64,000 bases of DNA from NCBI GenBank assembly GCA_963775425.1, contig CAVZJB010000009.1:272616-336615 (forward strand). Reading direction: 5' to 3'. Shown one piece after another: positions 12,436 through 62,828 of the stretch; position 1 is the stretch's first letter; the number at the start of each line of letters is the position of its first letter. Under the pieces are notes generated by a model that was not told the origin of the DNA, did not search any database, and was given only the letters and a program-made list of their open reading frames with translations. The DNA comes from an uncultured delta proteobacterium (lineage in GTDB: Bacteria; Myxococcota; UBA727; VGSZ01). Position numbers and translations under genes: made by a program.

Positions 12436-14304
<1,869 letters not shown>

Positions 14305-16171: not shown

Positions 16172-16413
16172 GGCCTGGGTCTTCAGCTTGGGCGCTCGGA
16201 ATCAGCGAAGGCGAGACAACGTCGCCACCGCCGGAGCTCCTTTCCGCTCCGCCGTGTGGCCGTAGCACCGGCCCCTTCCGGGTGGCTCGGATCAACACGT
16301 TACGCGTCAGCCCTGAGCCGAGCGGCGCTACGACATCCGGTGCGCCCGGATCGACCGGCGGTCCACGGCGGGGTGAGACGCCAGGCTTGCGTTGTTCCGC
16401 AACGGGAGCTCGC

Positions 16414-17763
16414 ATGCGCACGCGCGTCGTCGCAGTCGTCTTCGCCACCGTCGTCGTCGCCGGTGTCACGCTCGGCGCCACCGATCCGCCGCCGACGCGG
16501 ATCGCGCCGCACGGCGCGCAGGTCATGGCCGATCAGATCGCGGCGTTCGACGCGCTGAAGACCGACGTCACGGGCGAGGTGATCCCCACCGACCGGGCCT
16601 ACTGGAACACGCTCGTCCCCGAGGACAACGCCGCCACGCCCGCGCGCATCGCCCTCGGCAAGAAGCTCTACTTCGACCCGCGGCTGTCGCGCGACGGCAC
16701 CGTCGCGTGCGCGACCTGCCACGACGTCAGCCGCGGCTTCACCGACCGGCGCCCCGCGTCCGAGGGCATCGGCGGGCGCATCGGACGCAGAAACGCGCCC
16801 ACCACGTTGAACGCGGCGTTCTTCTCGTCGCAGTTCTGGGACGGGCGCGCCAAGACCCTGGAGGACCAGGCGAGGCTGCCGCCGCTGAACCCCGTCGAGA
16901 TGGGACAGCCCAACGGGGACGCGGTCGTCGCCGTGCTCACAGCGGACGCCGACTACCCGCGGCTGTTCCACGAGGCCTACGGACACCCGCCCAACTACGA
17001 AGACTTCGGCCGCGCCATCGGCGCCTTCGAAAGGACGCTCATCTTCCTCGACGCGCCCTTCGACCGCTTCATGAACGGACAGGTGGACGCCATCGACGAC
17101 GACGCCAAGGCCGGCATGGTGCTCTTCTTCGGCAAGGCGCGCTGCGCCTCGTGCCACACCCTGAGCGCCGTGAACCCCGTCGGCACCGACAACCGCTTCC
17201 ACAACATCGGCGTCAGCGCGCGGCACCAGGACTTCGAGAAGCTCGCGCGGCAGGCGGTGGCGGCGCTCGACAAGACGGGCGGCGGGGACCGCGCCGTCGA
17301 CGAGCTCGCGCTCTCCAGCGATCTCGCCGAGCTCGGCCGCTTCGTCGTCACCAAGCACCGAAGCGACATCGGGGCGTTCAAGACGGAGCAGTTGCGCAAC
17401 GTCGGGCTCACGCCGCCGTACATGCACGACGGCTCCATGCAGACGCTCTGGGACGTCGTCGACCACTACAACAAGGGCGGCGAGGCGAACCCGTACCTCG
17501 ACGGCGGCATCGAGCCCCTCGACCTGAGCGAGCAGGAGGTGAACCAGCTCGTCGCCTTCATGTTCACGCTCACCGACGCGCGCTTCGCCGATGACAACCG
17601 CACGCAATTCAATGAGCAGCGGGCGAAGGCGCAGAAGTCGCGCCCGTTCCGCGACGACGAGCTCGCGCACAGGACAGTGCTGCCGTTTCAGCAACGCCTG
17701 GCACGCGAGGACCGCGCGGCGGGCTCCGTCGACGGCGGGACGCGAGGGAAGGGGGCGCCATGA
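16414..17763 (+). CDS. Di-heme cytochrome c peroxidase (CCP/MauG family)
   Basis: Two CxxCH motifs (CATCH, CASCH). Signal peptide after the ATG at 16414. GGGAG RBS. Confidence 0.8.
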   Translation: MRTRVVAVVFATVVVAGVTLGATDPPPTRIAPHGAQVMADQIAAFDALKTDVTGEVIPTDRAYWNTLVPEDNAATPARIALGKKLYFDPRLSRDGTVACATCHDVSRGFTDRRPASEGIGGRIGRRNAPTTLNAAFFSSQFWDGRAKTLEDQARLPPLNPVEMGQPNGDAVVAVLTADADYPRLFHEAYGHPPNYEDFGRAIGAFERTLIFLDAPFDRFMNGQVDAIDDDAKAGMVLFFGKARCASCHTLSAVNPVGTDNRFHNIGVSARHQDFEKLARQAVAALDKTGGGDRAVDELALSSDLAELGRFVVTKHRSDIGAFKTEQLRNVGLTPPYMHDGSMQTLWDVVDHYNKGGEANPYLDGGIEPLDLSEQEVNQLVAFMFTLTDARFADDNRTQFNEQRAKAQKSRPFRDDELAHRTVLPFQQRLAREDRAAGSVDGGTRGKGAP

Positions 17764-18872
17764 AGGGCTGGAAGAGCGTTGAGACCAGGTACCTCGAGAA
17801 GCGCGAGCGCGCGTTGCGCGCGCTGGCCGGCCTAAACCGCCGCGGCTTCCTCAAAGCGTCGGCCGCGGCGGCCGCGGCGGCGGCGGGGCTCGTGTACCCG
17901 CGCAGCTTCCAGCCCATCGCCATCGCGCGCGCCGCGGAGCTCGACGGTGCGCCCTTCCGAATCGCGTACATCTCGGACTCGCACCTGTACGAGACCAGCC
18001 TCAACCCGCGCTTCGTCAACGCCATCATGCGCGCCGTCGACGACGTCAACGCGCTCGATCCGCAGCCGGACTTCGTCATCTTCGGCGGCGACCTGGCGCA
18101 GCTCGGCCAGGCCAAAGAGCTCGAGCTGGGCGCGCAGATCTTGAAGGAGCTGAAGGCGCCGCTGCACGTCATGGTGGGCGAGCACGACTGGTACTTCGAC
18201 CTGGGCGAGAAGTGGCGCGACCTGTTCGGCGAGCCCACCTACTCGTTCGACCACCGCGGCGTGCACTTCGTGGTGCTCAACAGCGTCATCGAGGACGACT
18301 TCTGGACCGCGCGCAAGCTCACGCCCATGGAGCGGATGCGCACCGTGGCCGGGCTCGACGACAAGATCCAGTCGCGTTTCCAGGTCGGCGCGAAGCAACG
18401 CGCGTGGCTCGAGAAGGACCTGGCCCACCTGCCGGCGTCGACGCCGCTCGTCGTCTTCTCGCATTCGCCGCTCTACAAGCTCTACCGCCCCTGGAACTTC
18501 TGGACGGAGGACGCCGAAGAGGTGCAGGCGCTCCTCAAGCGCTTCTCGCACGTGAGCGTCATCCACGGGCACACGCACCAACTTCTCTTGAATCACGTCG
18601 ACAACATCAACTTCTACGGGATGCTGTCGACGGCGTGGCCCTGGCCGTACGCGCCCGAGGGGCTGCCGCCGCTCACCGTGCAGATGGGCCGCGCCGATCC
18701 ATTCGATCCGCAGGACGGCTGCGGCGACGGCACGTTCTCCCTGTCCGACGACGGCGTGGTCGAGAGCATCTACGACCTCTGGAATCGGAACCCGATCACC
18801 GTGCGCGCGAGCTACCTGTCGTCGAACGGCAAGGTCGACGTCCCGCCCGCGCCTGCTCTCGTCAGCTACTGA
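17760..18872 (+). CDS. Tat-secreted calcineurin-like metallophosphoesterase
   Basis: Twin-arginine motif NRRGFLK. Metallophosphoesterase motifs DSH, GGD, GEHD, GHTH. Its ATG overlaps the CCP stop (ATGA). Confidence 0.7.
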   Translation: MKGWKSVETRYLEKRERALRALAGLNRRGFLKASAAAAAAAAGLVYPRSFQPIAIARAAELDGAPFRIAYISDSHLYETSLNPRFVNAIMRAVDDVNALDPQPDFVIFGGDLAQLGQAKELELGAQILKELKAPLHVMVGEHDWYFDLGEKWRDLFGEPTYSFDHRGVHFVVLNSVIEDDFWTARKLTPMERMRTVAGLDDKIQSRFQVGAKQRAWLEKDLAHLPASTPLVVFSHSPLYKLYRPWNFWTEDAEEVQALLKRFSHVSVIHGHTHQLLLNHVDNINFYGMLSTAWPWPYAPEGLPPLTVQMGRADPFDPQDGCGDGTFSLSDDGVVESIYDLWNRNPITVRASYLSSNGKVDVPPAPALVSY

Positions 18873-18897
18873 ACGTCGCGCCGCGCAGGGGGTCTTC

Positions 18898-19557
18898 ATG
18901 TCGCGTCAGCGTCTCTTCATCGTCACCGCGCTCGCCGGCGCCGTCTCCGTCTGCGCCACGCTCGCGGGTTGCCGCGCGCCCCCGCCGCCGCCGCCGGCCG
19001 GCAAGGAGGGCGTCGAGGTGCTCCTGTGCGACGGAAAGACGAAGACCGTGATGCCCACGGGTACGCCCGGCACGGCCATCGCGGGCGCGCTGATGAGCCA
19101 GTGGCTGCGCAATAACCCCACGAAGGACTGGGACGTGGCGGAGGCCGACGCGCACACCCTCGTGCCCGCGTACGACAACGCGTCGCTCGTCGGCGATCCG
19201 CAGGGCGCGACGTACGGCGGCGTCACCAAGGACGACGTCGCCCTGTGGAAGAGCGAGAGCGAACGCTTCGCGCGCGCCGGCTCACGCGTGTTCCACAGCG
19301 CCGATGAGCTCGGCAGCACCATCGGCGTCTCCTGCGACATGTGTCACCCGAACGGATCGAACACGCACCCGGAGACCTTCCCGAAGTACGAGCCGCAGGT
19401 CGGCCGCGTCACCCTGCTGCGCGACATGATCAACTGGTGCATCGAGCACCCGGTGAAGGGCAAGGCGCTCGCGGGCGACGACCCGCGCATGCGCGCCCTC
19501 GAGGCGTACATCCTCGCGCAGCGCTCCGGCGTGCCGCTCGCCTACGGCAAGCGCTGA
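18898..19557 (+). CDS. c-type cytochrome lipoprotein (single CxxCH)
   Basis: Lipobox LAGC and a CDMCH heme-binding motif. Confidence 0.6.
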   Translation: MSRQRLFIVTALAGAVSVCATLAGCRAPPPPPPAGKEGVEVLLCDGKTKTVMPTGTPGTAIAGALMSQWLRNNPTKDWDVAEADAHTLVPAYDNASLVGDPQGATYGGVTKDDVALWKSESERFARAGSRVFHSADELGSTIGVSCDMCHPNGSNTHPETFPKYEPQVGRVTLLRDMINWCIEHPVKGKALAGDDPRMRALEAYILAQRSGVPLAYGKR

Positions 19558-23680: not shown

Positions 23681-24023
23681 TCACCGGCGGCGGCGGCGGC
23701 GGCGCATGGCGTCGACGTCGCGCAGGGCGGCGGCGAGGACCTCGGGATCGCCGGCGACGAGCCGCAGCCGGCGGGCCCGATCGAGCTTCTTCAGGGCGAC
23801 CTCGAGGCGGCGCGCCTTGGTCTCCGAGCGCAGCGGGTGCGCGAACGCGAGGGCGACCGGCCGCCGGCACCGCGTGTACGAGCCGCCGCGCCCCGCGTTG
23901 TGGGTGGCGAGGCGCTTGTCGAGAATCGTTGGTGACGCCGACGTAGAGCGAGTCGTCGGCGCAGCGTACGAGGTAGACGGTCCACACGCGCGCGGCGCTA
24001 GCGTCCTCGTCCCCGGCCCACAA
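23681..24023 (-). CDS. GIY-YIG nuclease family protein (UPF0213-like), frameshifted in this sequence
   Basis: N-terminal VWTVYLVRCADDSLYVGVTND is in one frame; LDKRLATHNAGRGGSYTRCRRPVALAF is in the -1 frame. One extra A/T at about 23924 (GAGAATCG). Confidence 0.55.
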
Positions 24024-24056: not shown

Positions 24057-27000
24057 TCAGGCCGCGGAGACGTCGACGCGGCTCTTGCCGCCGCCGAGCG
24101 GGACCACGCGGACCTGCGCGCCGATGCGCTCGGCGAGCGCGGGCAGGTGCGAGATGACGCCGATCTGCCGGCCGGTGGCGCGCAGCGCCTCGAGCGCCGC
24201 CAGCGCCGCCTCGAGGGTCTCCGGGTCGAGGCTCGAGAAACCCTCGTCGATGAACAGGGACTCCACCGGCGTCCGCGCCGCCGACAGCGCCGACAACCCC
24301 AGCGCCAAGGACAGCGACACCAAGAAGGTCTCTCCGCCCGACAGCGAGCCCACCGCGCGCGGCTCGTCGCCGCTTTCGCAATCGACGACGACGAGATCGA
24401 GGTCGAAGCGCGCGCGCTTGTCGCCGCCGCCGGCGCGCTCGAGGCGGTAGCGCGGCGCGAGCATCGCGAGCTGCGCGTTGGCGTGCACGAGCAGCGCGTC
24501 GAGCGTGAGGCTCTGCGCGAACACGCGGAAGCGCGCGCCGTCGGCGGAGCCAATCACGTCGCTCAAGCGCTCCCAGGTGAGCGCCCGTGCGCGCTGCGCC
24601 TCGAGCCTCGGGAGGAGCAGCCCCGCGCGCCGCCGCGCATCGTCGTCGCGCGCGAGCGCCGCGCGGGCGCCGGCCCAGCGCTCGGTCGCGACGGCGAGCG
24701 CCGCCCGCGCGTCGTCGACGGTGTCCGGCGCCTGCGCCGGCGCGCCCTCGCCGTGCGCCTGCGCCGCCGACGCGCGCTCCGCGAGCACGGCCTCCGCGCG
24801 GGCGACGGCGTCGTCGAGCGCGCGCACCGCGGCGCGGGCGCGCTCGAGGGCGCCGTCGTCGAGAGCGCAGGCGCGGGCGAGCGCGTGATCGTCGTCGACG
24901 TCGCTGACGTCGCTGACGTCGCTGACGCGCGGCCCGGCGGCGCCGAGGCCCCCGTCGGGGACGGCGGGCCCCCCTCGGGCGAGCCGCCCACCGGGGCGCG
25001 CCGCGCGGCGGGCCGCCTCGAGCGCGGCGCGGGCGTCGTCGTGCGCGCGGCGGGCGCGCTCGTCGCCGTCGAGGGCGCCGGCGCGCCCGGCCTCGGCCTG
25101 GCCGCAGCGCACCTCGGCGGCGGCCAGGGCGACGGCGGCCTCGGCCGCGGCGGCGCGCGCCTCGTCGAGGGCGGCGGTCAGGCGCCCGCGGACCTCGGCG
25201 ACCGACGCGCCGTCGAACAGCGCCGCGCGGGCCCGCAACAGCTCCGCCTCGTGCGCCCGCGCCTCCGCCGCGCGTGACGCCAGCGACGCCTCGCGCTCGG
25301 CGGCGGCGGCGCGGCGCTGCTCGAGCGCGCGCAGGGCGGGCTCGCTGTGCGCGAGCGCGGCCCGGGCGCGCAGCGCGATCTGCTGTTGCGCGCGCAGCCC
25401 CTCGACGCGCGGCTGCAGCGCGCGCAGCAAGGCGCGCGGCGAGGCGAGCGCATCGGCGGACGCGGCGCGCGCGTCCCCCTCCGCGCCGCCGTGCGGATCC
25501 AGGCGCGCGCGCAGAGACGCCGCGCGCTCGTCGCGGGCGACGACGCGGCCCTCGACGTCGTGCACGCGCAGGGCGAGGGCCTGCTCGTCCGCGGCGACCG
25601 CGGCCCCGGCGTCTGCCAACGCGCGCTCCATCGATCGGACGCGCTCGTCCGCGGCGCGCGCCCGGGCGAGCGCCGCGCGGCCGCGGGCGAGGGCGTCTTC
25701 GTCGAGGGCCGGCCCGCGCCGCTCGGCTTCGAGCCGCGCGACGTCCTCGTCGACGCGCGCCTGCTCGCCCGCCGCGTGCGCCAGCGCGCGCTCGATCTCG
25801 GCGGCGCGCGCCCGGGCCGCCGCGGCGCGCTCGCCCTGCCCACGCGCCGCGTCCTCGAGCGCCTCCAGCGGCGCGGCGGGCGCGTCGACCGCGGCGTCGT
25901 CCATCGGCGCGCCGTCGACGGCGGGGTGCGCGCGGCTCCCGCACAGCGGACACGGCTCGCCGTCGCGCAGCCGCGCGCGCCGCGCGCACGAGAGCGCCTC
26001 GCTCGCGCGGGCGCGCGCCTCGTCCGCGGCGCGCGCCTCGTCGACGGCGGCCGCGCGATCTGCGCGCAAGGCCGCGGCGCGGCTGAGCACACGCGCCCGC
26101 TCGGCGTCGAGCGCGCGGCGGTGCATCAAATCGGCCGCGGCCCCGGCGAGGATGCCGGCGGCGTCGTCGACGTCGCCGTCGCCCACCACCGCCGCGAGCG
26201 CCGCGCGCGCCTGGCCCAGCTCCGCGCCGGCGGCCGCGAGGCTCGCCGCCGCTTCGTCGCGCGCCGCGCGGGCCTCGTCCCGGTTGCGGGCCGCCGCGGC
26301 GGCGAACGCGCGCGCGCCCTCGAGCTCGGTGTCGAAGCGCGCGAGCTTGTCGAGGTCTGCCGCCAGCGCCTCCCACGACGGGATCAGCGCCACCAACGAC
26401 GGCTCGCGGGCGAGCACCTCTTCGGCGCGGTGGAGATCGCCGGCCGCCACCGCGCGGCTGACGGTCAGCTCGGCGAGCTCGCGCTCCACGCCGGCGAGCT
26501 CGTCCGCGGCGCGCGCGTGCGCGTCGACGGCGGCGGCGGTGCCGGCGCGCACGATCTGTTCGTCGAGCCGCAGCGCGCGCTCGAGCTCCGGCTCCGCGTC
26601 GGCGAGCACGCGGGCATGGTGGACGAACGCCTCGTCGGCGCGTGCGCGCCGCTCGCGCGCGCTGGCGACGTCGCCGCGCGCCCGTCGCTCGTCGTCACGC
26701 GCGCGCTCCGCCGCCCGCGCCGCACGCTCCGCCGCCGCCCGCGCCGCGCGCTCCGCCGCCGCGGGCGCCCGCAGCGGCCACACCCGCTCGAGCTCCGCGA
26801 GCTCCTGCGCCGCGGGGGCGCTCGCGCGGGCGCGCCGGGCGGCGTCGACGTCGACGGCCGCGGCTGCGGCGGCGCGCTCGAGCTCCAGCGCGCGCTCGTC
26901 GTGCCGCCGGCGCGCCTCGGCCGCCTCGAGCGCCCCTGCGGCGGCGGCGCGCGCGGCGTCGGCGTCGGCGTCGGCGCTCTCGAGGCACCGGCGCTCGTCG

Positions 27001-27688
27001 TCGCCGGCCGGCGGCATGGCGCGCAGCTCGTCCTCGAGGGAGCGCAGCGCGCGCGCCTCCTCCTTGCTGCGCTCGTGGGCCTGCACGGAGAGCGTCGAGT
27101 ACAGATCCGTGCCCGTGATCTTTTCGAGGAGCGCCGCGCGGTCGTCGGCGCGCGCCTTCAAGAAGCTCGCGAAGCCGCCCTGGGCGAGCAGCACCGAGCG
27201 GCAGCACTCGTCGAAGGTGAGGCCGAGGCGGGCGCGGATGTGCTCGAGCGTGTCCTCCTTGCCGTCGCCGGCGCGCTCGCCGGTGACGACGTCATGAAGC
27301 GTGAGCACCTCTTCCTGCAGGCGGCCGAAGGCCTGGCCGCGGGCGCGCCGCACCGTCCAGCGCGCGCGCCACACGCGCCCGTCGACGCCGCTGAAGTCCA
27401 CCTCGGCGAACGCGGTGGCGGCCATCCGGCGCACGAGGCTCTTGGGATCGTTGGCGCGCAGCGACGCGCCGTCCTTCTTGAGCGGAGATCCGCCGCGCCC
27501 CGACAGCCGCGGCGTGCGGTTGAAGAGCGCGAGGCACATCGCGTCGAGGAGCGTGGACTTGCCCGAGCCGACGGGGCCGGCGATGGCGAACAGGCCGAGG
27601 TGGCACAGCGGCGGCTGCGCGAGAATCGACGGCGAAGCCGCCCTTGAGCGACGCGAGGTTGGCGCCGCGGATGGCGAGGATCCTCACG
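24057..27688 (-). CDS. sbcC: Exonuclease SbcC (SMC-like ATPase), frameshifted near the 5' end in this sequence
   Basis: Long coiled coil, CPLCGS zinc hook, C-terminal ABC signature. The N-terminal VRILAIRGANLASLKGGF and Walker A GPVGSGKSTLLDAMCLALF lie in a different frame, separated by one extra base at about 27625 (GAGAATCG). GTG start overlaps the sbcD stop (GTGA). Confidence 0.85.
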
Positions 27689-28973
27689 GCCGCTCCCCCT
27701 CGTCGGCGGCCCTCGCCGGCACGGTGGACGGCGGCACCGTGGACGGCGGCACCGTCGACGACGGCGCGACGGCCTCCATCAGCTCGAAGAAGGCGCCGCG
27801 GATGTCGTCCGGGACGGCGCCGCCGTAGGTGCGCTCGTAGAGCCGCTCGAGCACGTGAACGGGCTCGATGTCCTGCAGCGAGGCGGCGGCGGCGACGTCG
27901 GCGAGGGGGCCGCCGTCGCCGGCGAGCGCCCGGTGCACGCGCACGAGCCGCACCGGCTTCCCCTCGAGCGCCGCCTCCACGCGCGCGCGCAGGTCGGGGC
28001 ACGGGGCGTCGAGCTTGACGCGCACCTCGAGGAGCGGCCGCGCGTCGACGGGGGCGTCCGGGAGATCGAGCGCGCGCAGGCGGGCGAGGACGTCGTCGAC
28101 GCCGGCGGCGGCCTCGGGGACGCGCAGCAGGTCGACGGCGCGCGGGACGAAGAGCGGGCGGACGCGGGCCTCGGGGAGGTCGACGACGAGCACCTGGTGG
28201 CGGTAGGCGCGCTCGGTCATCGACAGCGGGATGGGCGAGCCGCTGTAGCGGACGTTGTCGCGGCCGGCGACGTCCTGCGCGAGGTGGAGGTGGCCGAGCG
28301 CGACGTAGTCGACGTCGTCGGGGAAGATGTCGGCGGGGAGCGCGTGGACGTTGCCGAACACGGGGCGCTCGCTGTCCTCCGTGAGGCGCCCGCCCTGCAT
28401 GTGGCAGTGCCCGAGCGCGACGAGCGACTGCCCGGGGTGGCGCCGCGCGCGCGCGTGGTCCAGCACGCGGGCGTAGGCGTCGGCGACGCCGGCGACGACG
28501 GCGTCGCTGACGTCGGCGGGCTGGGGCGCGAGGTCCGCCATGCGCAGGAAGGGCAAGGCGGCGCACCACGCCTCGACGTCGCCGCCGTCACCGGTGAGCG
28601 GAACGACGCAAGACGCCGCGTCCACCTCGCCGGACGCGCGGGGCAGGGCCCCAACGACGTGCACGTCGAGCTCGCGCAGGATGGGGCCGGGCGCATCGAG
28701 GCGCGGCGCGGCGTCGTGGTTTCCGCCGATGACGACGATGTCGAGCCGCGGGAAGCGGCGCCGCGCCTCGGCGAGCCAGCGGTAGTACTGCGACTGCGCG
28801 GACGCGGGGGCGTTGCCGGTGTCGAAGACGTCGCCGCAGACGACGACGGCGTCGGCGCGCTCGTCCTCGATGCGATCGAGCAGCCACGCCATGAAGCGCT
28901 GGTGCTCCACGGCCCGCGAGAAGCCGCCGAGGGTCTGCCCCAGGTGCCAGTCGCCGGTGTGGATCAGCCGCAA
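27684..28973 (-). CDS. sbcD: Exonuclease SbcD (Mre11-like phosphoesterase)
   Basis: MRLIHTGDWHLG and GNHD motifs. TTG start. Contains a 15-nt x3 tandem repeat encoding PSTVP. Confidence 0.85.
   Translation of the reverse strand: MRLIHTGDWHLGQTLGGFSRAVEHQRFMAWLLDRIEDERADAVVVCGDVFDTGNAPASAQSQYYRWLAEARRRFPRLDIVVIGGNHDAAPRLDAPGPILRELDVHVVGALPRASGEVDAASCVVPLTGDGGDVEAWCAALPFLRMADLAPQPADVSDAVVAGVADAYARVLDHARARRHPGQSLVALGHCHMQGGRLTEDSERPVFGNVHALPADIFPDDVDYVALGHLHLAQDVAGRDNVRYSGSPIPLSMTERAYRHQVLVVDLPEARVRPLFVPRAVDLLRVPEAAAGVDDVLARLRALDLPDAPVDARPLLEVRVKLDAPCPDLRARVEAALEGKPVRLVRVHRALAGDGGPLADVAAAASLQDIEPVHVLERLYERTYGGAVPDDIRGAFFELMEAVAPSSTVPPSTVPPSTVPARAADEGERP
27721..27780. repeat. 15-nt tandem repeat (caccgtggacggcgg x3, plus one degenerate copy) inside the sbcD 3' end
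   Basis: Seen directly in sequence; encodes (PSTVP)n. Confidence 0.6.
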
Positions 28974-33802: not shown

Positions 33803-34126
33803 TCACGAGCCGCGGTAGGTGGAGTAGCCGAAGGGCGACAGCAGGAGCGGCACGTGGAAGTGCTGGGCTGCGTCCTTCACCACGAACGTGATCTGGGCGT
33901 GGGGATAGAACGTGTCCTGCCCGCTCTTTGCGTAGTGCGCGCCGACATCGAACGTCAGGCGGTGCGTCCCGGCGCCGACCTCGGCGAACGTCTTCACGCG
34001 GCCGTCGTCGTCGGTGACGGCGCTCTGCCTGTCCCCGAGCGTTGCGCCGCTCTCCAGCGTGACGGCGACGCCGGCGGCGGGCTGGCCGCGCGAGATGTCG
34101 AGGACGTGGGTGGTGATGCGGGCCAT
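33803..34126 (-). CDS. hiuH: 5-hydroxyisourate hydrolase (transthyretin-like)
   Basis: 107-aa protein ending in the diagnostic YRGS tetrapeptide. ATG at 34124-34126. Confidence 0.8.
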   Translation of the reverse strand: MARITTHVLDISRGQPAAGVAVTLESGATLGDRQSAVTDDDGRVKTFAEVGAGTHRLTFDVGAHYAKSGQDTFYPHAQITFVVKDAAQHFHVPLLLSPFGYSTYRGS

Positions 34127-34247
34127 GCGTCGTCTCCGGTCCGTGGTGATGGTGCCGACAAGAGTGCCTCGACGGGACGATAGCGCGCCGGCAAGCTCGA
34201 GCGGACGGTCCGGCGTCGCGCGCGTCCCCCTCGTTGGCCTCGAGGCG

Positions 34248-35135
34248 ATGCGAGGCGCGTGCGCCGCACCCTGCGTGCTCAAGCAGCGCACCGCGCTCAT
34301 CGGCGTGGCCGCCTGGTGCATCGCCGCGTGGTGCGGGTGCGACCGCCCCGCGCACGGGGGCGCCTGCAACGAGGACTCGGATTGCGCGGGCGCCTCCTGC
34401 GTCCTCGGCGCGTGCGTGGTCCCGGCCGTGGTGTGCGGAGACGGCAAGCTCGACGCGGGCGAGCAGTGCGACGACGGCGCGCGCGCAGCCGGTGACGGCT
34501 GCGACGCCCGCTGCCTGATCGAGGCGGGCTGGGACTGCGGCGGCGCGCCGAGCGTCTGCCAGCGCTGTGGCGACGGGGTGCAACAGGGCACCGAGGCGTG
34601 CGACGACGGCGGGCTCGCGCCCGGCGACGGCTGCACCGCGGCGTGCTCCGTCGAGAGCGGCTACGCCTGCGCCGGCGCGCCGAGCGCGTGCGCCCCGGTG
34701 TGCGACGACGGCACGGCGACGCCGGCGACGGCTGCGACGAGAGCTGCGCGGTCGAGACGGGCTTTGCCTGCGACGACGGCGAGCCCTCGACGTGCATGGC
34801 CGTCTGTGGCGACGGGCTCGTGCGCGGCGCCGAGGGCTGCGACGACGCCAACGCCGCCGCCGGCTGCGACGCCGGCTGCACCCCGACCGTCGGCTTCGCG
34901 TGCGACGCCTCCGAGCCGTCGGTCTGCCGGACCTTGCAACGGGCGCGACCGCCTTGCACGGCGTCGACGCGAGCGAGCTTGTGCTCACGCCGACGGGCGC
35001 AACGCGATCCCCCCTCCCCGCGGTGGTCGCCGCCGCCGGTGCGCACGAGAGCCCTCCACACCGCTGCGAAGTCGCCACAGCGACACCGCTCCCAATTCCG
35101 TTTCGACTATTCCGCTATGCGGATCACTTCTCTAG
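34248..35135 (+). CDS. Myxococcus cysteine-rich repeat protein (CGDG...E.CDDG...GDGC units); a -1 frameshift near 34715 splits the repeats across two frames; true 3' end uncertain
   Basis: ATG at 34248 with a signal peptide. The repeats CGDGKLDAGEQCDDGARAAGDGC... continue in the -1 frame as DAGDGCDESCAVETGFACDDGEPSTC.... Confidence 0.45.
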   Translation: MRGACAAPCVLKQRTALIGVAAWCIAAWCGCDRPAHGGACNEDSDCAGASCVLGACVVPAVVCGDGKLDAGEQCDDGARAAGDGCDARCLIEAGWDCGGAPSVCQRCGDGVQQGTEACDDGGLAPGDGCTAACSVESGYACAGAPSACAPVCDDGTATPATAATRAARSRRALPATTASPRRAWPSVATGSCAAPRAATTPTPPPAATPAAPRPSASRATPPSRRSAGPCNGRDRLARRRRERACAHADGRNAIPPPRGGRRRRCAREPSTPLRSRHSDTAPNSVSTIPLCGSLL

Positions 35136-36652
35136 GCGAGCCTGGCCAACCGAAGCGCGGTGATCCTCTTCTGCTCCTCGGCCGCGTTCTTGATCTCGGC
35201 GTCGCGGTCGTTCTTCACGCGCTCCTCGAGGATGGCGAGCATCTCCGCCGCCGACTTCCCCGACGCCATCACGATGAAGATGAAGCCGTGCTTGGCGAAA
35301 TACGCGTCGTTTTGCGCGGCGAGGCGCGCCTTGACGTCGTCGACGGCGCCGCCGACGGCGCGCTGCTCGTCGTCGGACCACGCGCGGGACGCTGCCGTCG
35401 CTGCCGCGGCCGCTCCGCCGCCGATGCGCGGGTGCGCCGCGAAAGCCTCGAGCCAGTCGTCGGTGACGAGGGCGTTGAACGCGGCGCGCACCGACTCGTC
35501 CAAGGCGCTCGGCGCGAGGAACGGCCGCGCCGCCAGCATCTTCTTCGCCCACGTGCATGAGCCGCAGCAGGAGAGGAACGCCGCCTCCGCCTCGGCGGGC
35601 GGCATGGCGTTCAGGCGCTTGACGCGCAGGGCCGCGCGCTCGTCGTCGTCGACGCGGGCGAACACGCGGAAGCGCGCGACGCCGCCGTCGGGGTGGACGC
35701 GGAGGCGAACGTGCGACACCGCCGGTTGCGCGCCCGACAAGGGGAACACGTGCCGCGTGTGCGGCCGCAGTTGCGTGCGCGGGAACAGCTCGCGCCACTC
35801 GCCGTCTGCGGAGCTGCCGGCGTCGACCGCGAAGCTCTCGGGGCAGTTGCCCTTGAAGTGCGACGTGTCGACGACGAGCCGCGTGGGCGTCGACCGCGCG
35901 CCGAGCTTCACGACGGCCCAGTCGTAGCCCGCGCGGCGCGCGCGGCGGGTCTCCCACCCGTCGTGCATGCCGCCGCTGTGCCCGGGGAAGAGCAGGTTGT
36001 GGCGGGAGCCGAAGAACATGTCGCTGCAGGCGAGGACGACGCCACCGAGCTCGGCGCCGGACACCTCGAGCTCGCCGTCGAGGCCGCCGTGGAGACGGAA
36101 GTCGGGCAGGGGCTCGCCGTACACACGCAGCCGCGCGACGCCGCCGTCGGGGAAGATGCGCAGGCGCACGTGGGTGAAGCGGTACGGCGACGACACCGCG
36201 AAGTCGTTCTTGGCGTTGCCGAGGAGGGGCGAGCGCGGCAACAGCGGGAACCACTCCGCGTGCTTGGCGATCTCTTGCGCGCTCGGGTAGCCGTCCACGC
36301 TCGTGCCCTCGAGCGCGCAGTGCGACGGGAAGTTGCCGCGGAAGAACGCGGTGTCGACGACGACGCCGCGGATGACGCCCGGTGCCCCGAGCCGCACCAC
36401 GCAGAAGTCCTCGTGCCACTCACCGTCGCGCGCGCCGCTGTTCTCGCGGTGGCTGCGCCGGCTCTCCCAGCCGTCCATCCACTTGCCGCGGTCGGTGTAC
36501 GCGTCCTCGTCCCAGACGGGCTCCTTGGCCTTCACGAGGTTTTCCATGCCGGCGAAGAAGTCGTCGCTGCACACCACGGCGGCGCCGCCGAGCCGCTCGT
36601 TGGCCAGGTCGACGAGGTCCTCGAACGAAGCGATGGCGTGCGTCGTCGTCAT
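35132..36652 (-). CDS. Allantoicase (two allantoicase repeats) fused to OHCU decarboxylase
   Basis: N-terminal ~330 aa carries duplicated allantoicase motifs. C-terminal ~170 aa (AHPRIGG...FIFIVMASGKSAAEMLAILEERVKNDRDAEIKNAAEEQ) matches 2-oxo-4-hydroxy-4-carboxy-5-ureidoimidazoline decarboxylase. Confidence 0.75.
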   Translation of the reverse strand: MTTTHAIASFEDLVDLANERLGGAAVVCSDDFFAGMENLVKAKEPVWDEDAYTDRGKWMDGWESRRSHRENSGARDGEWHEDFCVVRLGAPGVIRGVVVDTAFFRGNFPSHCALEGTSVDGYPSAQEIAKHAEWFPLLPRSPLLGNAKNDFAVSSPYRFTHVRLRIFPDGGVARLRVYGEPLPDFRLHGGLDGELEVSGAELGGVVLACSDMFFGSRHNLLFPGHSGGMHDGWETRRARRAGYDWAVVKLGARSTPTRLVVDTSHFKGNCPESFAVDAGSSADGEWRELFPRTQLRPHTRHVFPLSGAQPAVSHVRLRVHPDGGVARFRVFARVDDDERAALRVKRLNAMPPAEAEAAFLSCCGSCTWAKKMLAARPFLAPSALDESVRAAFNALVTDDWLEAFAAHPRIGGGAAAAATAASRAWSDDEQRAVGGAVDDVKARLAAQNDAYFAKHGFIFIVMASGKSAAEMLAILEERVKNDRDAEIKNAAEEQKRITALRLARLA

Positions 36653-36709
36653 GGCCGGGTTGTCGGCCGCGCCGGGGGAAATGACAAGGCACTATCGCGT
36701 GCGGACGGG

Positions 36710-38164
36710 TCAACCGCGGCCGAGGATCAGCCGGCCGTCGCGCGCGGTGACGTCGTCGCCGCGGCGAAAGACCTGTTGCCCGCGCAGCCACGTGGAGCGC
36801 ACCACGCCGAACAGCTCGCGGCCGTGGTACGGCGTGAGCTTGTTCTTGTGCGCGAGCTTCTCCTGGTCGACGACGAAGGTCGCGTCGGGGTCGATGACGG
36901 CGAAGTCGGCGTCCTTGCCCTTGGCGATGCTCCCCTTGCGAGAGAGCCCCGCGAGGAGCGCGGGCTCTTCGCTCATCCAGCGCGCCACGTCGACGAGCGT
37001 CCGTCCGCGGGCGCGCGCGCCGGTCCACGTGGCGGGCAGCGTGAGCTGGAGCGAGGAGATGCCGCCCCACGCGGCGTCGAAGTCGCCGCGCTCGACCTGC
37101 TTGAGAGCGACGGTGCACGGCGAGTGGTCGCTGACCACGCTGTCGAGGACGCCGCGGGCGAGCGCGTCCCAGAGGGCGTCCTGGTTTTCGCGCTCGCGGA
37201 TGGGCGGCGTGCACTTGAACCAGGTGGCGCCGTCGTCGATCTCCTCGGCGCAAAACGACAGGTAGTGCGGGCAGGTCTCGACGGTGAGCGGCAGGCCGTC
37301 GTCGCGCGCGTCCTCCAGCAGGGCCAGGGCCTCCGACGACGAGTGATGCACGATGTGCACGGGCCCACCGCGGGCGCGACACATGCGGACCATGAGCTCG
37401 ACGGCGGCGTTCTCCGACGCCTTGGGCCGGCTCTCGAGGTGGAAGCGATAGCTCCGCCGCGACAAGGCGCCGGAGGCGAGGGCGGCCTCGAGCGCGTGCG
37501 CGGCCTCGTCGATGGGCCCCTGCAATTCGGCGTGGGCGAGCAACGGGGCGCGCGCGTCCCGCAGGATCCCGAGGGAGCGATCCAGGTCCGCCTCGGAGAC
37601 GTTCTTGAACTCGGGGACGCCCGAGTCGATGAGGAAGCACTTGAAGCCGAGCACGCCGCGCTCGACCAGCGGGACCAGGTCCTCGTGGTTCCCCGGCACC
37701 ACGCCGCCCCAGAAGCCGACGTCGACGGCGAGCTGGTTCTTGGCGGCGTCGAGCTTGTCCTCGAACGCGGCGACGCTCGTGGTGGGCGGCAGGGAATTGA
37801 GCGGCATGTCGACGAGGGTGGTGACGCCGCCGCGCGAGGCCGCTTGCGTGGCGGTGGCGAACCCCTCCCACGCCGTGCGCCCGGGCTCGTTCACGTGCAC
37901 GTGGCTGTCGACGAGGCCGGGCATCACGAGCGAATCGAGGAAGTCCACGACGTCGACGCCGACGGGCACGCGGCCGCGCTCAACGACGTCTACGATCGCG
38001 CCGCCGTCGTCGACGAGCACCGCCGCCGGCCGCACGGCGCCGCCGGTGACCACGCGCGTCGACGTGAACGCCCGCGCGATCCCCCCGGCGGGCGCGCCGC
38101 CGCGCCACGCCGAGCGACCCTCGTCGTGGCGTGGGGGCTTGTTGTCGCTCGCCCCCGTCGTCAC
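36710..38164 (-). CDS. allB: Allantoinase (cyclic amidohydrolase)
   Basis: DSHVHVNEPG metal-binding motif and amidohydrolase fold. GTG start overlaps the upstream stop (GTGA). The Arg-rich N-terminal extension of ORF 36710..38581 was rejected. Confidence 0.75.
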   Translation of the reverse strand: MTTGASDNKPPRHDEGRSAWRGGAPAGGIARAFTSTRVVTGGAVRPAAVLVDDGGAIVDVVERGRVPVGVDVVDFLDSLVMPGLVDSHVHVNEPGRTAWEGFATATQAASRGGVTTLVDMPLNSLPPTTSVAAFEDKLDAAKNQLAVDVGFWGGVVPGNHEDLVPLVERGVLGFKCFLIDSGVPEFKNVSEADLDRSLGILRDARAPLLAHAELQGPIDEAAHALEAALASGALSRRSYRFHLESRPKASENAAVELMVRMCRARGGPVHIVHHSSSEALALLEDARDDGLPLTVETCPHYLSFCAEEIDDGATWFKCTPPIRERENQDALWDALARGVLDSVVSDHSPCTVALKQVERGDFDAAWGGISSLQLTLPATWTGARARGRTLVDVARWMSEEPALLAGLSRKGSIAKGKDADFAVIDPDATFVVDQEKLAHKNKLTPYHGRELFGVVRSTWLRGQQVFRRGDDVTARDGRLILGRG

Positions 38165-39807
38165 GGCGCCCCCGCGGCCGCGGGGCCGAAGGCGAAGTCG
38201 GCGGTGACCTCGCCGCCGGCGGGCACCGTCACGTGCACCGTCTTCTTGCCGCCGGCGTCGCTCCACGCGGTGAGCTCGACGTCGCCGGCGGGGACGCCGT
38301 CGAGGACGAAGGCCCCGTCGTCCTTGGTGACGGCGAACCACGGGTCGTCGACGACGCCGATGTGGTTGATCATCCACGGGTGGATGTCGCAGCGCGTCTC
38401 CACCATCAGCTCGGGCGCACGGAACACCTTGGTGTCCCGCTGCCCCTGCGCGGGCTGGTTGATGCTGAAGGTGTCGTTGTTTTGCGCCACCGAGCGGATG
38501 TTGTGAAAGACCGGGTCGGTGTTCACGAAGGTGACGGGCTGTCCCACGCGCACGCCGCTCACGCGCGGCTGGTAGAGGCACCCCTTCTGCTCGACGGTGA
38601 CCTCGCCCTGCGGCGCGGGGATGGCGTACTTGTCGACGCCGCCGGTGACGGCGACGAACGCCTCCGCGAGCTTTCCGTCATGAACGACCGCGGCGGGGAT
38701 GGACAGCGGCCCGTCGTGGCCGGCCTCACAGCCGCCGTAGAGCGCCACCTCGCGTGGCGCGGGGACGTCCCCCTGCCATGTGACGCTGCCGCGGATGCGG
38801 CCGGTGGCCGTGATGGGCGTGCCCGTCTTGGCTGCGTTCACGACGGGCGCGGCGCGGTCGTGGTCCGAGGCCAGCGTGCCCGCGACGGACGCGACGATGG
38901 TGACGACGACGAGCGTGCCGAGGAAGCCGAGCATGACCGTGGCCGGCGGGTCCACCTTGTTCATCCACCACTTCACGCCGGCGCCGGCGCAGCAGACCAC
39001 GACGAGGATCACCCAGTTCCACCCGATGGTGGTGCCGGCCACGTGGGCGGCGGCGCCGTAGGTGAACGGGAAGTGGTTGGAGATCATGATGAAGATGACC
39101 GGGTAGGTCATGTAGTGGTTGTGCTTGCTGCGGCGCTTGGCCGAGTACGCCTTGGCCGCGTCGGGCTCCTTGCCCGTCTTCACGCTCTCGACGAGGTTTC
39201 GCTGCGCCGGGATGATGCGCATCCAGACGTTGGCCACCATGCACGTGCCCATCACCGCCGCGGTGTGGATGTACGCCGCGCGGCCCGACAGGAGGTGCGT
39301 GAACGCGAAGGCGATGGCCGCGAGGCCGATGACCGAGATGGCCACCGTGAGCGGCGGGTTCTGCGACGCGGCGCCGGCGAGCCGGGAGGACCACAGGAGG
39401 TCGTAGGCGACCCAAGCGACGACGAGCGTGCCCATGCAGATGGCGGTGGCCACCTGATGCGAGACCACCGGGTGAGCGGCGTCGACGAGGAGGACGCCGC
39501 CGCCGAGGTGGTAGAGCACGATGAGGAGGAAGAAGCCGGTCATCCAGGTGAACGCGGCCTCCCACTTGAACCAGTGAAGCGTCGACGGCAGCGCGCTCGG
39601 CGCCACCAGCTTCTTTTCGACCTCGTAGAAGCCGCCGGAGTGCACCATCCACAGGACTCCCTCGAGCCCCTCCCGCTTCTCCTTGGGCTTCTCCATGTGG
39701 CTGTCGAGCCAATGGAAGAAGATGGACGAGCCGATCCACATGATGCCGGCGATGAGGTGCGCCCAACGCAGGACGAGGTTCAAGCCTTCACTGACGAGCG
39801 GATTCAT
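38161..39807 (-). CDS. PuuD-like (DUF989) integral membrane protein fused to a periplasmic type-1 copper cupredoxin domain; candidate membrane urate hydroxylase
   Basis: N-terminal ~330-aa multi-TM domain resembling urate hydroxylase PuuD. C-terminal TFVNTDPVFHN...ETRCDIHPWM carries a His/Cys-x2-His-x2-Met blue-copper site. Confidence 0.6.
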   Translation of the reverse strand: MNPLVSEGLNLVLRWAHLIAGIMWIGSSIFFHWLDSHMEKPKEKREGLEGVLWMVHSGGFYEVEKKLVAPSALPSTLHWFKWEAAFTWMTGFFLLIVLYHLGGGVLLVDAAHPVVSHQVATAICMGTLVVAWVAYDLLWSSRLAGAASQNPPLTVAISVIGLAAIAFAFTHLLSGRAAYIHTAAVMGTCMVANVWMRIIPAQRNLVESVKTGKEPDAAKAYSAKRRSKHNHYMTYPVIFIMISNHFPFTYGAAAHVAGTTIGWNWVILVVVCCAGAGVKWWMNKVDPPATVMLGFLGTLVVVTIVASVAGTLASDHDRAAPVVNAAKTGTPITATGRIRGSVTWQGDVPAPREVALYGGCEAGHDGPLSIPAAVVHDGKLAEAFVAVTGGVDKYAIPAPQGEVTVEQKGCLYQPRVSGVRVGQPVTFVNTDPVFHNIRSVAQNNDTFSINQPAQGQRDTKVFRAPELMVETRCDIHPWMINHIGVVDDPWFAVTKDDGAFVLDGVPAGDVELTAWSDAGGKKTVHVTVPAGGEVTADFAFGPAAAGAP

Positions 39808-40495
39808 CGACGATCTCTTTCGCGCTGAAGGTGTTGTCTGCCCAGGTATGCACGGGCACGCGGCGCGCGTCGAGGAGCGCGGTGCGCACCGGGTGGGCGA
39901 TGGCGCCGTCGGCGCCCGCGACGCCGTAGACGTTGAAGAGCGACGCGAACGCCTCCACCACGTCGGGCGCGCCCGTGGCGAGGGTGAACCCCGCGTCGCC
40001 GGCGACCGCGAAGCGCGCCGCGTACGCGCGCAGCGCCGCCGGCGTGTCCCGCGCCGGATCGAGCGTGACGACGAGGACGCGGGCGCCGTCGCGGCGTGCC
40101 TCGGCGAGCTTCTTCATGGTGAGCGGACACATGGTCTCGACGGGGCAGTGCGTATAGACAAAGCCCACGGCGACGGGCCCGGCGACGTCACCAAGCTCGA
40201 ACGCTTGCCCGTCCTGGTCGACGAGCGGAAACGACGGCACCGGTTGTCCGGGCCGCCACGCGGCGACGTCGGCGCGCCAGGCGTCGTGGCTGCGACAGGA
40301 CGTGAGCGCGAGCGCGGCGCCGAGGAGCGCGGCGCACACCGTCGGCCACGAGGCACGTTCGTCAGGGCGCACCTGGGGGCCAATAGCGGCGATGACGGCG
40401 GGTGCCAACGGCGGGGGCGCGCGGCGCCGTGAGGTCGGAGGCAACACGAGCGCGCCCACGCTGTGACGGTAGCGCGCCCGAGCGGGCGTGGGCAT
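39788..40495 (-). CDS. SCO1/SenC-like thioredoxin-fold copper chaperone lipoprotein
   Basis: Lipobox LALTSC and a YTHCPVETMCP motif in a thioredoxin-like fold. Its stop overlaps the PuuD-like gene start. Confidence 0.6.
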   Translation of the reverse strand: MPTPARARYRHSVGALVLPPTSRRRAPPPLAPAVIAAIGPQVRPDERASWPTVCAALLGAALALTSCRSHDAWRADVAAWRPGQPVPSFPLVDQDGQAFELGDVAGPVAVGFVYTHCPVETMCPLTMKKLAEARRDGARVLVVTLDPARDTPAALRAYAARFAVAGDAGFTLATGAPDVVEAFASLFNVYGVAGADGAIAHPVRTALLDARRVPVHTWADNTFSAKEIVDESARQ

Positions 40496-47662: not shown

Positions 47663-47829
47663 GGCCCCCGAATGAACAACTCGATCGCCCTCGCGGCCGA
47701 TCCATCGCCGCTGGCTTCGTTGCTCGTCGGTCACGTGGCGACGGCCACGCTCCCTCCTCGCGCCTCGCCATCGGCGCGCCTCGACCGCGATCATCGACCG
47801 ACTTGTTCATTCGAGGGCCCTTAGCCCTC
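47653..47829. mobile_element. MITE-like palindromic element: ~34-bp imperfect terminal inverted repeats (GGGCCCCCGAATGAACAA / TTGTTCATTCGAGGGCCC) flanking ~100 bp, bounded by TTAG on both sides, lying exactly between two convergent TAG stops
   Basis: Seen in sequence: left arm 47653-47686, right arm 47789-47829; ~30 of 34 positions are complementary. Confidence 0.45.
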
Positions 47830-59989: not shown

Positions 59990-60366
59990 GGTTGCGGTCG
60001 CCCGGCGCGCGCGACCGCCTCTTCGAACGCCTCGGCGATCGGGTTGAAGGTGCGACGCGCGTCGTCGAGGGCGGCGCGGTCGCCGCGCAACGAGACGTAG
60101 AGCCGGGTGAGAACGAAGCCGTAGACGTCGTCGAGCATGGTGCACAGCTCGGGGGCCTTCGACGGATCGAGCGTGGACCGGAGCTCGTGCACGATGTCGA
60201 TGGCCTTGCGCACCGGCGTCGCCGCCTGCGCGGCGCGACCGAGGGCGAGCTCGCCGTCGGCGAGGAACATCTGCTTGCGCGCACCCGCGAGCAAGAGGAG
60301 CAGCACGCGCTCCTTCGACGCAGTGGCCGTCTGAGTTTCTTGATAGCGCGCCGACGGCAACATCAC
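59986..60366 (-). CDS. fliS: Flagellar export chaperone FliS
   Basis: YQETQTATASKERVLLLLLAGA...IVHELRSTLD pattern typical of FliS. 126 aa. Confidence 0.75.
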   Translation of the reverse strand: MMLPSARYQETQTATASKERVLLLLLAGARKQMFLADGELALGRAAQAATPVRKAIDIVHELRSTLDPSKAPELCTMLDDVYGFVLTRLYVSLRGDRAALDDARRTFNPIAEAFEEAVARAGRPQP

Positions 60367-61700: not shown

Positions 61701-61778
61701 GGCGCTCTCCAAGAGGGGTGAACGAGGACGAAGCCGCCGCACGGATCACCCGGGTCCGTGCGGCGGCTTCAGGAGCGC

Positions 61779-62645: not shown

Positions 62646-62828
62646 GGCGGGGCTCCTTCTTTCTGCTGAGCATTTCGTTCGTGTGTGCTCACGGAGAGGT
62701 TCGTCACGGCGCGGGCCCTGATTAAGATCTGCGTCGCCGGATCAACCCGCGCGGACGAATTCGCCGCACAAAAGAGCGCAAGGACGGAGCGAGCCCCGTC
62801 CTCATCACCGCGGCGCGGACCCGCGGGG

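Follow-up and report, generated by a model that had tools for sequence, protein, structure and literature searches.

The DNA-repair gene sbcC in the stretch of DNA analysed here (64,000 nucleotides, referred to as the window) was found to be interrupted after codon 21 by an extra base in a GATTCT hexamer, and the same extra base in GATTCT breaks three other genes. The lesion therefore has the appearance of a systematic error in the sequence or of a mutation specific to the motif, and not of a special property of sbcC. An earlier sequence-only reading of the locus had described the break in sbcC correctly but missed its recurrence at three more GATTCT sites; with four identical insertions in the window, the likeliest cause changes. 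The following features define the break:

27625..27687, minus strand: sbcC codons 1-21 (MRILAIRGANLASLKGGFAVD), left in a frame apart from the rest of the gene
27622..27627, plus strand: AGAATC hexamer (GATTCT on the coding strand) that contains the extra base of sbcC
24057..27623, minus strand: main body of sbcC, 1,188 codons and a stop, with no further lesion
24057..27539, minus strand: mechanical sbcC ORF, from ATG 27539 to the stop, 1,160 aa, without Walker A

The frame opened by the sbcC GTG reads V/M-RILAIRGANLASLKGGFAVD for 21 codons (27687..27625), after which it encodes junk (SRAAAAVPPRP...) and remains open to 27292. The adjacent frame reads LAQPPLCHLGLFAIAGPVGSGKST from 27623, includes Walker A (27578..27552) and ends at the stop at 24057. 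The start and first ~20 codons had been said to lie out of frame with the rest of the gene, and this was borne out, with 21 codons followed by a Walker A body one base out. ORF 24057..27539 does lack the P-loop, its ATG 27539 falling after Walker A. On the plus strand, positions 27621..27628 read GAGAATCG, and removal of one A/T from this sequence, the edit originally proposed, rejoins the gene as a 1,209-codon ORF. Removal of a T (27624 or 27625) gives GAT CTC (VDL). However, as deletion of the C at 27623 also restores the frame, giving GAT TTC (VDF), the extra base is bracketed no closer than 27622..27625. HMM scoring at residue 22 barely separates L from F, and codon-pair counts lean to T/A as the extra base without being decisive. 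No ATG, GTG or TTG is present in the main frame between the sbcD TGA and Walker A, and hence the in-frame alternative start keeping Walker A that would have spoken against a split gene was not found among these codons. The 21-residue piece is identical to its closest homolog (P0001) at 20/21 positions and the repaired N-terminus aligns with E. coli SbcC, so the break, as judged from sequence, is not due to chance.

The repaired gene encodes a protein with the motifs of SbcC, all on the minus strand:

27578..27552, minus strand: Walker A, GPVGSGKST
25952..25941, minus strand: zinc hook, CPLC
24347..24330, minus strand: signature, SLSGGE
24257..24237, minus strand: Walker B, LFIDEGF
24161..24147, minus strand: H-loop, GVISH

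The CxxC zinc hook, LSGGE, Walker B and H-loop expected of the SbcC/Rad50 family, and found in E. coli SbcC, are thus all there, and Pfam matches were obtained to AAA_23, AAA_29 and SbcC_Walker_B (40.7 bits). The other hallmark of the family, an N-terminal strand and a Walker A motif at a fixed distance, is present only once one base has been removed; the P-loop offset is then 36 residues, as it is in 157 of 159 relatives. Comparison of the two models, one of the checks suggested earlier, favoured the repair, with the score of the whole protein against NCBIfam PRK10246 rising from 262.6 to 336.9 bits and the match of the repaired N-terminal piece beginning at model position 1. Alignment to SbcC homologs, another of these checks, had the same outcome. 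Residues 1-217 of the repaired protein lie on residues 1-203 of E. coli SbcC (PDB 6S6V), with codons 1-21 on residues 1-21 and the alignment running residue for residue from 1 through the P-loop. Though both heads match end to end, the repaired protein falls below the curated NCBIfam cut-offs (336.9 against 750 for PRK10246; 250.9 against 478.5 for TIGR00618), because its divergent coiled coil costs score. It differs from E. coli SbcC in its length of 1,209 aa, in its alanine-rich coiled coil and, as recorded, in being split after codon 21. Third-position GC is 0.95-0.96 over 1,208 codons, and codon bias is strong across the 1,188-codon body.

The gene for the partner subunit, SbcD, is located directly upstream, as in E. 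coli:

27684..28973, minus strand: sbcD (Mre11-type nuclease subunit), 429 aa, TTG start, TGA stop at 27686..27684, intact
27684..27687, minus strand: GTGA, the sbcC GTG (27687..27685) overlapping the sbcD TGA (27686..27684)

SbcD carries the Pfam domains Metallophos and SbcD_C, again as in E. coli, and scores 166.4 bits against NCBIfam TIGR00619 (cut-off 77.65). Coupling of the sbcD stop to the sbcC start as GTGA was confirmed by reading both strands; the overlap was as first described but the GTG, which had been placed at 27686-27688, is one base away at 27687..27685. A Shine-Dalgarno-like sequence, GAGGGGGAG, ends 5 nt upstream of this GTG. As an NTGA overlap between the TGA of a long upstream ORF and the sbcC start occurs at 61-65 of 80 related loci, the GTGA overlap is an ordinary operon feature. 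The locus is an ordinary two-gene sbcDC operon, with translation of sbcC coupled to the sbcD stop. SbcC and SbcD form the bacterial counterpart of Mre11-Rad50, a nuclease driven by ATP that cleaves DNA hairpins and DNA ends that are blocked. As recorded, the sbcC body shares its frame with sbcD; translation through the sbcD TGA into this body was rejected as a candidate, as the resulting fusion would miss SbcC residues 1-21.

Names given to relatives include 'AAA family ATPase' and 'nuclease SbcCD subunit C'. At all 159 related loci where this was checkable, a single frame encodes the protein from residue 1 through the P-loop, and a frameshift in sbcC was found at none of them. No close relative (>80% identity) was recovered by contig scans of genomes and metagenomes, which peaked at 61% and 57%, or by protein searches, in which the best identity was 79%, on short fragments. 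The proteins of the window are singletons in protein clustering.

Three further genes in the window carry the same lesion:

23681..23987, minus strand: small GIY-YIG gene directly downstream of sbcC
12636..14304, minus strand: acyl-CoA synthetase-like gene, with the lesion 27 codons before the true stop
62829..63708, minus strand: FlgL-like flagellar hook-associated gene, with the lesion 28 codons before the true stop

In the GIY-YIG gene, codons 1-21 (23987..23925) encode VWTVYLVRCADDSLYVGVTND, the extra base is 23924, within an AGAATC at 23922..23927, and the protein continues as LDKRLATHNAG... from 23923 to 23681. Repair extends the Pfam GIY-YIG match from 18.1 bits (model 1-23) to 61.3 bits (model 1-75 of 78). 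The linkage of this gene to sbcC is not conserved, a GIY-YIG homolog being found at 0 of 160 related loci. The coding strand of the synthetase gene reads CAG A ATC at the break, such that GATTCT (12714..12719) is on the plus, non-coding strand. The true C-terminus, IPRTSTGKFLKQRLRADHKDVLAGRA followed by a stop, is encoded at 12716..12636, and on repair the Pfam AMP-binding_C match increases from 62.8 bits (model 2-70) to 76.6 bits (model 2-76 of 76). In the FlgL-like gene, the AGAATC is at 62911..62916 and the true C-terminus, LAFAERSLDAALTVSAKSFQLTILDKL and a stop, is at 62912..62829. Here, repair raises the TIGR02550 score from 100.7 to 124.6 bits and moves the end of the PRK08073 match from model position 260 to 285 of 287. 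The terminal segments abandoned through the frameshifts retain a coding signal and finish at the end of the family model, and all four split genes are otherwise undecayed.

The whole window was scanned for frameshifts using codon log-odds over 18 codons on each side, blind to any motif; a coarser scan with 35 codons per side missed even sbcC. Four strong one-extra-base junctions were found on real genes, at ~62916, 12699, 27624 and 23927. GATTCT/AGAATC hexamers occur only four times in the 64 kb, and these are the four frameshifts. By comparison, related GC-rich loci totalling 496 kb, used as controls, contain 56 GATTCT sites and none of these showed a junction; nor did any of the 147 intact GATCT sites in the window. 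One change at one motif, in unrelated genes and absent from controls, is the pattern that a systematic error leaves. As the motif is on the non-coding strand in the synthetase gene, the factor common to the four sites is the DNA, not the mRNA or its translation. No other kind of lesion was detected in the window, which has no Ns and no homopolymer frameshifts, and the remaining scanned genes gave full-length domain matches throughout. ORFs at 54094.., 20125.. and 11152.. were considered as further frameshifts and dropped on the position of the domain or because a natural start was found.

The best reading of these data, and one that we consider reasonably probable, is that the sequence record contains one-base insertion errors that depend on sequence context. 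Such errors would have been introduced at GATCT (or GATTT) when bases were called or when the consensus was built or polished, and the organism itself would carry an intact SbcC of 1,209 aa. We infer the technical nature of the cause; no platform for which an insertion turning GATCT into GATTCT is a documented artefact is known to us. A search of the literature for a GATC-linked insertion artefact found nothing specific. Context- or methylation-linked consensus errors of long reads are similar in that errors at a short motif create spurious frameshifts. However, in the papers found, methylation-linked nanopore errors are substitutions at methylated motifs and long-read indels are in homopolymers, whereas here the insertion is inside GATCT. 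Adapter read-through was rejected by reasoning only, as it predicts AAGATC and AGAATC was observed.

The location of the lesions counts against a record error. All four sites have a gene end 63-84 nt away. Of the 137 intact in-gene GATCT sites, only 15% have one within 100 nt (p ~5e-4, a post-hoc figure), and technical errors falling at random would be indifferent to gene ends. The bias is weaker (~0.03) if the target was GATTT, for which there are only 8 intact sites. An error in the record therefore needs an extra assumption, for example homology-guided frameshift correction that missed gene ends, of which no direct trace was found within the window. With GATCT as the target, the hit rate is also low, at 4 of 151 sites.

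A bias toward gene ends is what selection acting on true frameshifts would yield, and the C-terminal cases in the synthetase and FlgL-like genes fit this. It is possible, though on balance unlikely, that the four insertions are real, recent and the product of a motif-specific process at the DNA level, which could be slippage that duplicates the T of GATCT or error-prone rejoining after a break inside GATC. In that case, sbcC would be a fresh null allele in a cell without SbcCD, and selection would have purged mid-gene events while sparing those at gene ends or in dispensable genes. The otherwise clean window, which speaks against a generally error-prone assembly, is also consistent with real mutation. 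However, as there are four identical events in 64 kb and no decay in the 3.5 kb of sbcC or in the abandoned segments, a very recent burst would be required. Events near the N-terminus, as in sbcC and the GIY-YIG gene, are null at any position and hence selection cannot explain their placing; sbcC holds 10 other GATCT sites, all of them intact. The segments lost contain essential elements, namely the region of the A10 motif lysine in the synthetase, the C-terminal helix of FlgL and the first strand of GIY-YIG. A quasi-palindrome or template-switch origin was rejected, as imperfect inverted repeats flank only the sbcC site and no template common to the four sites was found.

A more specific and rather improbable form of the same explanation is a hotspot, so far unrecognised, at which an enzyme-driven process would add one A/T pair inside GATC(T) and would lately have knocked out SbcCD. 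This process, for example a blunt GA^TC break followed by end-joining with a single added nucleotide, would produce bursts of identical +1 frameshifts, with survivors only near gene ends or in dispensable genes. We know of no natural hotspot for insertions of the GATTCT kind. Natural loss of sbcC does exist, and in Candidatus Sodalis pierantonius (PMC4948707) an inactivated sbcC likewise adjoins sbcD. However, in Sodalis several inactivating mutations are common to two copies of the gene and the genome as a whole is undergoing degeneration (PMC4948707), whereas the gene described here has one lesion, is otherwise perfect, and shares that lesion at the same motif with three unrelated genes.

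It is very unlikely that sbcC is an isolated old pseudogene formed by ordinary decay, independent of the other three sites. In favour of this explanation, bacterial genomes often contain pseudogenes with frameshifts, and sbcC can be dispensed with under laboratory conditions. However, several lesions, loss of motifs and relaxed codon bias would be expected, and the gene has a single lesion, intact motifs and strong codon bias; isolated decay is also contradicted by the one hexamer that the four frameshifts share and that gave no junction at any of the 56 control sites.

Still less credible is an N-terminally shortened SbcC that keeps Walker A by starting at a non-canonical codon in the main frame, such as the ATT at 27626..27624 that the insertion created. 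The main frame upstream of Walker A does contain ATT 27626, CTG 27608, CTG 27593 and ATC 27584, the only such codons there. However, none of the four has a Shine-Dalgarno-like sequence, near-cognate starts are very weak in bacteria, and the product would miss residues 1-21, a segment that all relatives conserve and that aligns with the beginning of E. coli SbcC.

Programmed +1 ribosomal frameshifting at GAU-UCU-C, in which a stall at a rare UCU would give regulated full-length SbcC, is essentially excluded, since a frameshift of this kind is conserved at 0 of 159 homologs and the sites do not share a shift-prone sequence in the same mRNA sense, the fourth having a different mRNA context (CAG AAU C) with the DNA motif on the opposite strand. 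As in recoding of the prfB type (CUU UGA C), there is one base to skip for the full protein and a rare zero-frame codon, UCU after GAU, used at 0.9 per 1,000 codons, and GAU UCU CG is present in the mRNA sense at 3 of the 4 sites. However, a rare codon is automatic when reading out of frame at 95% third-position GC. The sbcC site also differs from the prfB type in that there is no A-site stop codon and no close upstream Shine-Dalgarno-like stimulator, and by the rules of codon-anticodon pairing the tRNA-Asp on GAU should be unable to re-pair on AUU.

For sbcC alone the finding is of little consequence, as its operon with sbcD is a standard one; the split gene is better annotated as a frameshift than as a truncated SbcC without a P-loop. 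As GATTCT/AGAATC marks every frameshift in the window, the hexamer offers a cheap quality-control test for the whole assembly, and for assemblies made in a similar way, by which spurious gene truncations could be found and repaired. If the insertions are instead true, they would represent a new sequence-specific frameshift hotspot, and the organism would be a natural SbcCD-null strain.

The sbcD and sbcC genes form a minus-strand pair coding for the bacterial Mre11-Rad50 complex (SbcCD nuclease), and the sbcD gene was located in the window (72.5% GC) as follows:

28973 (TTG start) to 27686..27684 (TGA stop), minus strand, sbcD, encoding Metallophos and SbcD_C domains and passing the TIGR00619 cut-off

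The sbcC start codon, a GTG at 27687..27685 within gcc-GTG-A, was found to overlap the sbcD TGA as the sequence-only reading had proposed, although the position given there for the GTG (27686-27688) was one base off, and a GAGGGGGAG element terminates 5 nt before the GTG. Among 80 related loci, 61-65 have a long upstream ORF whose TGA overlaps the start of sbcC, 8 more have a TAATG-type overlap, and GTGA coupling is the ordinary state of this operon. The SbcD C-terminus is a short tandem peptide repeat, SSTVPPSTVPPSTVPA (27700..27760, minus strand, sbcD 3' end), encoded by a 15-nt repeat directly upstream of the sbcC ribosome-binding site.

The GTG frame of sbcC comprises 21 codons reading MRILAIRGANLASLKGGFAVD (27687..27625) followed by an arginine/proline-rich string open to 27292, whereas the adjacent frame gives LAQPPLCHLGLFAIAGPVGSGKSTLLDAM... 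from 27623 and is uninterrupted down to a stop at 24057. In the sequence as recorded, the extra base has put this main frame, which carries Walker A and the body of sbcC, in register with sbcD. In it the first canonical start codon (ATG, GTG or TTG) is ATG 27539, which lies past Walker A (27578..27552), and the SbcC in the ORF list (24057..27539) is therefore a 1,160-aa product without the P-loop, as had been described. From the sbcD TGA to Walker A the main frame has no ATG, GTG or TTG, and its only near-cognates there are ATT 27626, CTG 27608, CTG 27593 and ATC 27584, and a Shine-Dalgarno-like sequence was found at none of these. As a product from any of the four would lack the conserved first 21 SbcC residues, no alternative start that makes the edit unnecessary was found.

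Removal of one T from GAT-T-CTC rejoins the two frames, as had been suggested, in a 1,209-aa SbcC that aligns with its family from residue 1. E. coli SbcC (PDB 6S6V) aligns over its residues 1-203 with residues 1-217 of the repaired protein. The match of the repaired N-terminal piece to PRK10246, the NCBIfam SbcC model, begins at model position 1, and the whole-protein score against this model rises from 262.6 bits (unrepaired) to 336.9 bits; divergence of the alanine-rich coiled coil keeps SbcC below the formal NCBIfam cut-offs even so. Residue 1 and the P-loop are in one frame in 159 of 159 related loci (genomes and metagenomes), and the offset of the P-loop is 36 in 157 of these and in the repaired SbcC. 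The closest homologs found, two fragments with 78-79% identity, read AVDLHKPPLCHLGLFAIAGPVGAG and DIDLRKPPLGHLGLFAIAGPVGAG, and the protein is closest to those of Myxococcota and Planctomycetota MAGs. Removal of the C in place of the T also restores the frame, giving VDF, and DF is the most frequent pair at this position in the SbcC family at large. As both removals work and profile scores at residue 22 do not separate L from F, the extra base is bracketed to 27622..27625 rather than assigned to a single position. The earlier observation was confirmed, and its account of the frames, the repair and the GTGA overlap was supported.

The remainder of SbcC is intact, with the CPLC zinc hook, SLSGGE, LFIDEGF and GVISH all found, and third-position GC in sbcC is 0.95-0.96. 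Natural sbcC inactivation is known, for example in Ca. Sodalis pierantonius, in which several inactivating mutations, common to two copies, occur in an overall decaying genome (PMC4948707), whereas the gene examined here has one lesion and is otherwise intact.

When the error-proneness of the assembly was tested, third-position GC periodicity was seen to shift phase towards the 3' end of a gene for an acyl-CoA synthetase. The annotated frame ends ...PDAYVFVDQNPAHLHRQVP..., and the canonical terminus of adenylate-forming enzymes, IPRTSTGKFLKQRLRADHKDVLAGRA*, is in the next frame; the coding strand CAG-A-ATC corresponds to GATTCT on the plus strand. A check of all GAATC/GATTC sites in the window for frame breaks exposed two further cases, in a small GIY-YIG gene directly downstream of sbcC (...SLYVGVTND, break, LDKRLATHNAGRGGSYTRCRRPV...) and in a FlgL-like gene (...DADIAKAATD, break, LAFAERSLDAALTVSAKSFQLTILDKL*). 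In each of the four genes the extra base is held in a GATTCT/AGAATC hexamer, and removal of one base there restores the family model.

Hexamer frameshifts, with profile matches before and after repair
12714..12719, gene on minus strand (GATTCT on plus), acyl-CoA synthetase: Pfam AMP-binding_C, 62.8 bits (model 2-70) to 76.6 bits (model 2-76 of 76)
23922..23927, minus strand, GIY-YIG protein: Pfam GIY-YIG, 18.1 bits (model 1-23) to 61.3 bits (model 1-75 of 78)
27622..27627, minus strand, sbcC: PRK10246, as in the text
62911..62916, minus strand, FlgL: NCBIfam TIGR02550, 100.7 to 124.6 bits; NCBIfam PRK08073, match end 260 to 285 of 287

A motif-blind scan for two runs of 18 coding-like codons, the second starting one base after the end of the first and in a different frame, gave four strong one-extra-base junctions on real genes (62916, 12699, 27624 and 23927), which coincide with the only four GATTCT/AGAATC hexamers of the window; the other hits were antisense to real genes or, at about 3579, marked a natural gene boundary. 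No frame junction was found at the 147 intact GATCT/AGATC sites of the window or, in 496 kb of related GC-rich loci, at any of 56 GATTCT sites. The window includes no Ns, its G/C runs (up to 7) carry no frameshifts, and domain matches in its other scanned genes are full-length. All four affected genes are otherwise perfect, and their abandoned segments are still coding-like, ending where the profiles end.

The sbcC (27625..27687) and GIY-YIG (23925..23987) genes both break after exactly 21 codons, counting from GTG 23987 in the latter (alternative start, TTG 24023), and at an identical 9-mer, CGATTCTCG (codons GAT then CTC). An imperfect inverted repeat (27600..27620 and 27632..27652; 21-nt arms, 76% complementary, 11 nt between) flanks the sbcC site, and no comparable structure was found at the other three.

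The hexamer could arise from GATCT by duplication of the T within a GATC site (4 of 151 such sites hit) or from GATTT (4 of 12 hit, with intact GATTT sites having identical flanks also present). Codon pairs in the window genes (GAT-CTC, 8; CAG-ATC, 14; GAT-TTC and CAA-ATC, 0) favour GATCT. GANTC is under-represented (GACTC and GAGTC, 41 observed against about 92 expected in a second-order Markov model), and GATC, with 305 sites, is about as expected.

Elsewhere in the window, where proteins are singletons at 90% identity, the following were observed:

16282..19557 (plus) and 55139..57064 (minus), two di-haem cytochrome c peroxidase/MauG-like genes, near a TAT-signal metallophosphoesterase and a SoxA/TsdA-type cytochrome c
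33803..40354, minus strand, purine-catabolism cluster with full-length domain matches throughout (C-terminal HIUase/transthyretin-domain protein, allantoicase-OHCU decarboxylase fusion, amidohydrolase and membrane urate oxidase, Urate_ox_N)
47829..52202, minus strand, 1,457-aa protein in which adenylation motifs (YTSGSTGRPKG), a carrier-protein serine region and a thioesterase-like end in the translation suggest a single-module NRPS-like enzyme
60363..63708, minus strand, flagellar genes, FlgL (profile-scanned) and a FliD-like protein (60363..61742, by eye)

As the four genes are undamaged elsewhere and their abandoned segments are coding-like, the insertions are either absent from the DNA of the organism or very recent. 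A technical artefact in the record is the somewhat favoured explanation, since the events are identical, motif-bound and without accompanying decay, and since four occur in 64 kb where lesions of other kinds are absent. Against it, a literature search found no description of a GATTCT-type insertion error, the retrieved papers reporting methylated-motif substitutions and homopolymer indels. The location of all four frameshifts 63-84 nt from a gene end also counts against an artefact, as among intact GATCT sites inside genes only 15% are within 100 nt of one (p about 5e-4, post hoc; about 0.03 under the GATTT reading). However, a hypothetical annotation- or homology-guided correction step that missed gene ends would give the same bias.

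Insertion by a real, motif-specific mutation is distinctly less likely. Selection would then bias the two C-terminal cases towards gene ends but not the two N-terminal cases, which are null alleles wherever located, and 10 other GATCT sites in sbcC are intact. Recoding, non-canonical initiation and unrelated decay together retain very little probability. A DNA motif shared on either strand rules out a translational cause common to the four sites and makes independent gene decay untenable. Programmed frameshifting at GAU-UCU is very unlikely as the source of full SbcC, as the rarity of the UCU that follows GAU in the zero frame (0.9 per 1,000 codons) is automatic for a 95%-GC3 gene read out of frame, re-pairing of tRNA-Asp on AUU should not be possible, the sbcC site has neither a stop codon nor a close Shine-Dalgarno stimulator, the shift is in no SbcC homolog (159 related loci), and the mRNA context differs at the acyl-CoA synthetase site.

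The split in sbcC is most probably one case of a recurrent GATTCT insertion in the record and not a biological feature of sbcC. Recurrence and gene-end proximity are its only unusual aspects, and the sbcDC pair is of the standard SbcCD (Mre11-Rad50) kind.
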